From assembly GCF_044647545.1 (NCBI RefSeq), contig NZ_CP172818.1: a DNA stretch of 64,000 nucleotides; one strand, 5' to 3'. A model generated the notes under the pieces. It was not told the DNA's origin and searched no databases. It was given only the letters and a program-made list of their open reading frames with translations. This DNA comes from Escherichia coli (GTDB lineage Bacteria; Pseudomonadota; Gammaproteobacteria; Enterobacterales; Enterobacteriaceae). A program made the position numbers and the translations under genes. This document shows, piece after piece, positions 54,147 through 54,256 of this stretch. Every line of letters starts with the position of its first letter. Position 1 is the first letter of the stretch.

Positions 54147-54256
54147 GCCGGATGCGGCAACGCCTTATCTGGCCTACGGCTCGGTTTGTAGGCCTGATAA
54201 GACGCGCCAGCGTCGCATCAGGCACAGGATGCGGCGTAAAATGCCTTATCCGGCAT
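54147..54256. repeat. BIME/REP cluster (three REP-like units) between nrdA and nrdB
   Basis: TGCCGGATGCGGCAACGCCTTATCTGGCCTAC, GTAGGCCTGATAAGACGCGCCAGCGTCGCATCAGGCA, GGATGCGGCGTAAAATGCCTTATCCGGCA. Confidence 0.8.

Follow-up and report, generated by a model that had tools for sequence, protein, structure and literature searches.

REPs in the nrdA-nrdB spacer

We found that the 142-nt spacer separating nrdA (stop codon 54135-54137) from nrdB (ATG at 54280) holds three REP sequences in BIME-2-type order at 54146-54256: a forward y-REP, an inverted z2-REP and a truncated forward y-REP. The cluster lies in a 64-kb stretch of DNA (the window), within which it is one of five REP-bearing sites. It is real, ordinary and already described, and it matches published REP/BIME biology; REP/BIME elements have been described since 1984. 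It is virtually certain that these repeats belong to the enterobacterial REP (palindromic unit [PU]) family with BIME-2 organization, and the whole account, that is, family identity together with the RNA-level mechanism set out below, is probably the best explanation. The units of the cluster are as follows.

54146 to 54177, + strand: y-type REP; head TGCCGGATGCGGC, foot CTTATCTGGCCTAC, CTAC at 54174-54177; -14.4 kcal/mol; E = 1.4e-8
54178 to 54187, no strand: tail-to-tail linker of 10 nt, GGCTCGGTTT, from the CTAC of y to the GTAG of z2, by direct reading
54188 to 54224, - strand: z2-type REP, inverted; GTAG at 54188-54191 (+ strand), head TGCCTGATGCGACG (- strand)
54225 to 54256, + strand: degenerate y-like REP abutting the z2 head; -11.8 kcal/mol; E = 2.5e-8

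The stem of the first y unit begins at 54147, 9 nt past the nrdA stop codon, and its loop carries a private 3-nt deletion at 54158. The z2 unit folds at -21.9 kcal/mol (z = -4.6; profile E = 1.5e-10). Neither the outer bases of the head nor the CTAC foot are present in the third unit, whose end lies 23 nt ahead of the ATG of nrdB. On the - strand, an 11-codon open reading frame at 54246-54281 reaches with its last codons into the third REP; it is antisense to the start of nrdB and corresponds to the small protein YoaM (b4779) of K-12. Our search for literature specific to the nrdA-nrdB REPs returned nothing relevant; a CRISPRi preprint names nrdA only as a conditionally essential gene.

The window is Escherichia coli chromosome, running from ccmH/nap through eco, mqo, rcsDB, rcsC, the ato operon and gyrA to ubiG, yfaL, nrdAB-yfaE, inaA and glpTQ/glpABC. 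It is colinear and on the same strand with K-12 MG1655 at about 2.291-2.356 Mb, and is itself not K-12; the nearest of 5,426 complete genomes is FDAARGOS_497, with 99.95% identity over 62.4 kb. The names of the flanking genes were fixed from the annotation of K-12 MG1655 and FDAARGOS_497, and those given earlier by a sequence-only reading at the five sites agree with both.

Family identity of the ten units

The sequence-only reading had placed REP palindromes at five intergenic sites, and all of them are present within about 3 nt of where it put them. In total the window contains 10 units at these five sites and none beyond them. The 14-nt foot CTTATCMGGCCTAC with at most 1 mismatch gave seven matches, and all of them fall in the five sites; the number expected from shuffles is 0.03. 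Direct reading shows the head TGCCKGATGCG together with the foot CTTATCMGGCCTAC at each site. A profile made from the ten units was run over the whole window; the units themselves score E = 1e-6 to 3e-11, as expected by construction, and there is no significant match outside the five sites in the window (best E = 0.05), so the earlier five-site list is complete. The resulting density is about that expected from the 584 REPs counted in K-12 (PMC3333891). The RefSeq K-12 record lists no annotated REP features.

All ten units fold as hairpins, eight of them clearly better than shuffles, and the GTAG/CTAC foot is kept in seven; it is deleted in 12077-12109, degenerate in 12126-12163 and truncated away in 54225-54256. 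Every unit lies between annotated genes, with the sole overlap at the rcsC stop codon, which falls in the GTAG of unit 23964-24001. Additionally, the repeats are dispersed: per E. coli genome, the median number of places matched by REP-bearing queries is 10, 14 and, with the K-12 nrdA-nrdB spacer as the query, at least 34, and the window units group with these genome-wide REP copies. Alignment of the units yields two types, y with a short loop and z2 with a long one; their orientation alternates at all four multi-unit sites, and the linkers read directly between units measure 0 to 18 nt. This is the y/z2 composition of BIME-2, whose unit types and alternating organization with short linkers were defined in PMC3333891.

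Compared with the known E. coli y and z2 types, the window units share the 30- to 40-nt imperfect palindrome, the GTAG/CTAC foot, the TGCCKGATGCG head, the extragenic position and the high copy number, and match them almost base for base. The differences are not essential ones: three of the ten copies are degenerate or truncated, and unit 23916-23954 lacks the stem mismatch required for transposase binding (PMC3333891). With BIME-2 the sites share the y/z2 alternation, the short linkers and a tandem number that varies between strains, although the arrays are short in the window (1 to 1.5 units) and attain 6 to 7 units in other strains. BIME-1 (RIP/RIB), which combines y and z1 units with a long L linker carrying an IHF site, was rejected, as the window has no z1 unit and no long linker, and the IHF consensus WATCAANNNNTTR occurs at none of the five sites.

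The other four sites

Four of the five sites (eco/mqo, rcsB/rcsC, ubiG/yfaL and yfaE/inaA) lie between convergent genes, in keeping with the sequence-only reading, which had said so of several, while nrdA/nrdB is intra-operonic. The features of these four are listed below.

12077 to 12109, - strand: y-type REP of eco/mqo, foot-truncated, GTAG lost; E = 1.3e-6
12126 to 12163, + strand: z2-type REP of eco/mqo with degenerate foot TTATTAGCATAC; E = 2.5e-8
12162 to 12194, no strand: perfect 13-bp hairpin, GCCACATCCGGCA / TGCCGGATGTGGC; -27 to -28 kcal/mol, z about -7
23916 to 23954, - strand: z2-like REP of rcsB/rcsC; GTAG at 23917-23920; -25.3 kcal/mol, z = -8.4
23964 to 24001, + strand: y-type REP of rcsB/rcsC with decayed stem; CTAC at 23996-23999; -7.2 kcal/mol, z = -0.9; E = 3.7e-10
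47293 to 47333, + strand: z2-type REP of ubiG/yfaL with perfect head and foot consensus; -21.3 kcal/mol; E = 2.9e-10
47341 to 47378, - strand: y-type REP of ubiG/yfaL, inverted; -19.1 kcal/mol (- strand); E = 2.7e-11
55675 to 55714, + strand: single z2-like REP of yfaE/inaA; -18.3 / -20.5 kcal/mol; E = 5.7e-10

At eco/mqo, the y and z2 units stand head-to-head and are followed by the perfect hairpin; the GTAG of the y unit was lost through a complex 21-nt deletion private to the window. The hairpin at 12162-12194, which starts 6 nt past the mqo stop codon, is conserved in K-12, has no U-tract and consists of a REP-head-like half and its exact complement. By the profile, where its E is about 1, it is not a REP.

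The rcsB/rcsC units are likewise head-to-head. Unit 23916-23954 has lost the internal mismatch usual in REPs and is palindromic almost throughout. In unit 23964-24001, the GTAG includes the stop codon TAG of rcsC (23996-23998, - strand), in K-12 as in the window; here an "extragenic" repeat therefore supplies the end of a coding sequence. At ubiG/yfaL, the z2 unit lies 36 nt past the ubiG stop codon, and the y unit, tail-to-tail with it, lies 22 nt past the yfaL stop codon on the - strand. Just upstream of this z2 unit, at 47272-47284, the window carries a 13-nt insertion relative to K-12, ATTCATCCGGCAA; CATCCGGCA, the complement of a REP head, lies within it, and it is possibly what remains of a REP. 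The yfaE/inaA stem begins 12 nt past the yfaE stop codon and, on the other strand, 9 nt past that of inaA.

Hairpins close to stop codons without terminator signals

As RNA, single REP units fold at -12 to -25 kcal/mol with z scores down to -8. The weakest folds, those of 23964-24001 (both strands) and 12077-12109 (- strand), are no better than shuffles, and these two units look like decaying copies. The whole nrdA-nrdB spacer reaches -66.6 kcal/mol (z = -5.8). Its predicted minimum-energy fold pairs arms of different REPs around a three-way junction rather than forming three separate hairpins, and this cross-REP pairing makes the in vivo structure of the spacer uncertain.

By setting the ends of the open reading frames against the first stem bases of the computed folds, we obtained the distance from stop codon to stem for nine flanking genes: 9 nt for nrdA, 12 nt for yfaE, 9 nt for inaA, 10 nt for rcsB, 9 nt for eco, 6 nt for mqo (the non-REP hairpin), 2 nt for rcsC, 36 nt for ubiG and 22 nt for yfaL. 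Hairpins thus start 2 to 12 nt past the stop codon at seven of the nine. These seven distances fall within the range of up to 15 nt in which a hairpin past the stop codon lowers upstream translation, as PMC12306157 relates from Liang et al. 2015.

The sequence-only reading had also called several of the repeats probable mRNA stabilizers or terminators. G+C-rich hairpins directly past stop codons, mostly of convergent genes, would suit Rho-independent (intrinsic) terminators of the flanking genes. However, the two regions scanned for terminators and promoters (11500-24500 and 47000-56000) gave 22 terminator-like matches, all of them outside the REP sites, and neither strand shows a U-tract after any REP at the five sites, so that no site combines a hairpin with a U-tract. 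An efficient stop is also unlikely between nrdA and nrdB, which are adjacent, co-oriented and treated in the literature as one nrdAB operon. The intrinsic-terminator reading is largely refuted by these sequence features and we hold it to be extremely improbable; apart from this loose word, the earlier interpretation of the sites as REP/BIME is supported. Any role at 3' ends would be that of an exonuclease barrier after Rho-dependent termination, or of a weak attenuator.

Another reading takes the BIME units to encode a dedicated small RNA of the naRNA4 type (REP325-derived and nucleoid-associated). The Rfam model of naRNA4/REP325 (RF02564) matches 23920-23996 on the - strand with 59.8 bits, just above its gathering score of 59.5, and 53.7 bits are obtained for the nrdA/nrdB unit; the y+z2 unit sequence and the two-hairpin structure are indeed shared. 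But since the model amounts to a single BIME unit of y+z2, a resemblance is to be expected of every BIME-2. The threshold is reached, barely, at only one site of the five; the pairs at nrdA/nrdB, ubiG/yfaL and eco/mqo stay below it. The two scanned regions contain no promoter-like match in or beside the five sites, and naRNA4 derives from another locus, REP325 (PMC4550694). The RF02564 matches are a family resemblance, not evidence for a separate small-RNA gene, and we consider such a gene very unlikely.

Copy number differs between strains

When the five spacers were compared with those of K-12, three proved shorter in the window. The eco/mqo spacer measures 714 nt in K-12 versus 128 nt (six y+z2 units versus one), the rcsB/rcsC spacer 199 nt versus 85 nt (two units versus one) and the nrdA/nrdB spacer 233 nt versus 142 nt (five REPs versus three); at nrdA/nrdB, one clean 88-nt y+z2 unit is missing from the window. 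The ubiG/yfaL spacers (127 nt in K-12, 140 nt in the window) differ by a 13-nt indel, and the yfaE/inaA spacer has 53 nt in both.

For the population comparison we used 5,426 complete E. coli genomes; allele shares, except that of the REP-free class described below, come from systematic samples of 20 to 45 rows rather than full counts. At eco/mqo, about two thirds of the sampled rows carry one unit and the others 3 to 7 or more, and at rcsB/rcsC about one fifth carry one unit, the state of the window, and the others two. The ubiG/yfaL query spans 427 to 440 nt, with a further class about 80 nt shorter, which reflects variation in spacer length. The yfaE/inaA site shows one length in every sampled row, and at least 80% of its query is covered in 5,420 of the 5,426 genomes.

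The nrdA/nrdB spacer carries 0, 3, 4, 5 or about 7 REPs. Spacer lengths of 88, 142/145, 189 and 226/233 nt were read directly, and one of about 322 nt was deduced from a single match span. The REP-free 88-nt spacer is found in 1,684 of the 5,426 genomes (31%); by row samples, the remaining genomes divide into about 45% with five REPs, 18% with three and 5% with the 189-nt type, longer alleles being rare. Coverage of at least 80% with the K-12 query joins overlapping pieces of three-REP alleles and is no count of five-REP alleles. In the 189-nt allele, y units are joined by z1-like ones; alleles thus differ in REP type besides number. In strain U1, the REP-free spacer (L003:339-426) is the equivalent of window positions 54138-54279.

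The window versus K-12 differences and the population samples agree on the variable tandem number typical of BIME-2. The earlier expectation of copy-number differences between strains thus held at three sites (eco/mqo, 1 to at least 7 units; rcsB/rcsC, 1 to 2 units; nrdA/nrdB, 0 to about 7 REPs), while the same cross-genome check showed a variable spacer length at ubiG/yfaL and a constant one at yfaE/inaA. Because 31% of the genomes are REP-free at nrdA/nrdB, REPs are dispensable there.

A boxC-like allele of the nrdA-nrdB spacer

The 88-nt allele, absent from the window itself, holds a C-rich/G-rich element, TTTGCAC...GTCCCCTCTCCCCTTGCGGGAGAGGGTTAGGGTGAGGGG, with a core of about 55 nt. This element is itself dispersed, being detectable at a median of 13 places per genome, and in the K-12 lineage it is matched best between ycjD and fabI, the latter (envM) being the locus where, as we assume, boxC was first described. 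By size and copy number the element fits boxC, published as a 56-bp repeat with 32 copies (PMC2267715), and we refer to it as boxC-like. In 31% of the genomes it takes the place of the REPs between nrdA and nrdB. This spacer, within an operon essential for aerobic growth, tolerates a complete swap of its repeat content.

Small indels and IS insertions in the REPs

Over 62.4 kb the window differs from FDAARGOS_497 by only three substitutions and a few indels: 1 nt in yfaL, 1 nt at 56547, about 2 kb between inaA and glpQ, and two further ones that both fall inside REPs. The latter are the complex 21-nt loss at 12078-12082, in the foot of the eco/mqo y unit, and the 3-nt loss at 54158, in the loop of the first nrdA/nrdB unit. 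Both are absent from all of the complete genomes, where the best identities are 95.3% (eco/mqo) and 99.5% (nrdA/nrdB); each is either a true mutation linked to the hairpin or an error of sequencing. The REP sites are length-polymorphic markers, at which small indels between close relatives concentrate.

REPs had also been named as targets of insertion sequences, and two such cases were found in other strains. The z2 unit of rcsB/rcsC is interrupted in its 3' arm, in strain 21AH057, by an IS3-family element, presumably IS2-like from its ends, with CGCAT on its flanks. In strain NRZ14408, an element of the IS1397 family, known to be REP specific (PMC1525189), sits in the loop of the yfaE/inaA REP between copies of a TTA duplication.

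These observations bear on the view that REPs are selfish or neutral passengers without host function, tolerated in DNA downstream of genes. At nrdA/nrdB their presence, their number and even the repeat family vary freely, nearly a third of the genomes (31%) having no REP; several copies are decayed or truncated, and some strains have REPs interrupted by IS elements with no annotated damage to the neighboring genes. Against this, the yfaE/inaA REP keeps a constant length in all sampled genomes (with at least 80% of the query covered in 5,420/5,426), most hairpins lie within 12 nt of a stop codon, and REP deletions elsewhere shorten mRNA half-life, as cited in PMC12306157. We regard the passenger view as possible, though on the unlikely side.

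Proposed role of the repeats

The account that we favor treats REPs as noncoding DNA; the REP-associated tyrosine transposase, together with recombination between tandem units, would spread and rearrange it. Binding and cleavage by this transposase need the GTAG foot and the stem mismatch (PMC3333891); most units have both, but the stem of unit 23916-23954 is almost without mismatch, and GTAG is absent from three units. No REP transposase gene is present in the window. Gain or loss of a tandem unit is seen directly as the 88-nt y+z2 difference between the window and K-12.

Because REPs would be transcribed together with their neighbors, they are expected to form stable RNA hairpins. In the nrdAB mRNA, the structure 9 nt past the nrdA stop codon is a probable barrier to 3'-to-5' exonucleases that would stabilize the upstream nrdA segment, and it may slightly lower nrdA translation or read-through into nrdB. 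Hairpins would form on both transcripts at the four convergent pairs and most likely mark and protect processed 3' ends after factor-dependent termination further downstream. Blocking of 3' exonucleases and stable 3' ends after Rho-dependent termination are published (PMC6061677, PMC12306157). Carried over by analogy from other REPs, this RNA-level mechanism is in our estimation somewhat favored. Any REP effect at nrdA/nrdB is a dispensable, tunable modulation.

A role at the DNA level has been considered as well, in which BIME-2 elements, as strong transcription-independent sites of gyrase binding and cleavage, would organize local supercoiling. The y+z2 composition found here is that of BIME-2, in which gyrase cleavage sites are over-represented with a preference for y units (PMC6379681). 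The same study, however, found only a subset of BIME-2 elements cleaved, and the window copies are short (1 to 3 units). Such a role is unlikely to be the main explanation here, and it is compatible with, not exclusive of, the RNA-level role.

One extension of the RNA-level mechanism is that the allelic series of the nrdA-nrdB spacer (boxC-like, or 3, 4, 5 or about 7 REPs) sets the ratio of the ribonucleotide reductase (RNR) subunits or the stability of nrdAB mRNA by lineage; if true, the effect would act through the hairpin 9 nt past the nrdA stop codon. We judge this distinctly doubtful. REP transposase cleavage, gyrase binding and mRNA stabilization are all published (PMC3333891, PMC6379681, PMC6061677, PMC12306157), as are variable copy number and IS targeting, and the sites have little significance beyond their correct annotation.

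Other features of the window

Two genes are each split into two open reading frames. The gene for the autotransporter adhesin YfaL (47399-51156, - strand) is divided through a 1-nt deletion at 49006 relative to FDAARGOS_497, which makes it either a frameshifted pseudogene or the product of a homopolymer error. The alpha-2-macroglobulin-family gene yfaS (36767-41386, - strand) is annotated with an internal stop in FDAARGOS_497 and as a pseudogene in K-12. Additionally, about 2 kb with the genes for an MFS transporter and a LysR regulator, present in FDAARGOS_497, is missing from the inaA-glpQ spacer (56369-56830), which keeps a LysR remnant resembling the K-12 yfaH pseudogene.

A sub-threshold Rfam match to the Rev24 antisense RNA lies inside rcsC at 25588-26042 (+ strand; 118.6 bits against a gathering score of 246), and probably reflects conservation of the coding sequence. 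The gene for the small RNA micF gives a full-length Rfam match at 20166-20259 (+ strand; 116.8 bits), upstream of ompC as expected.
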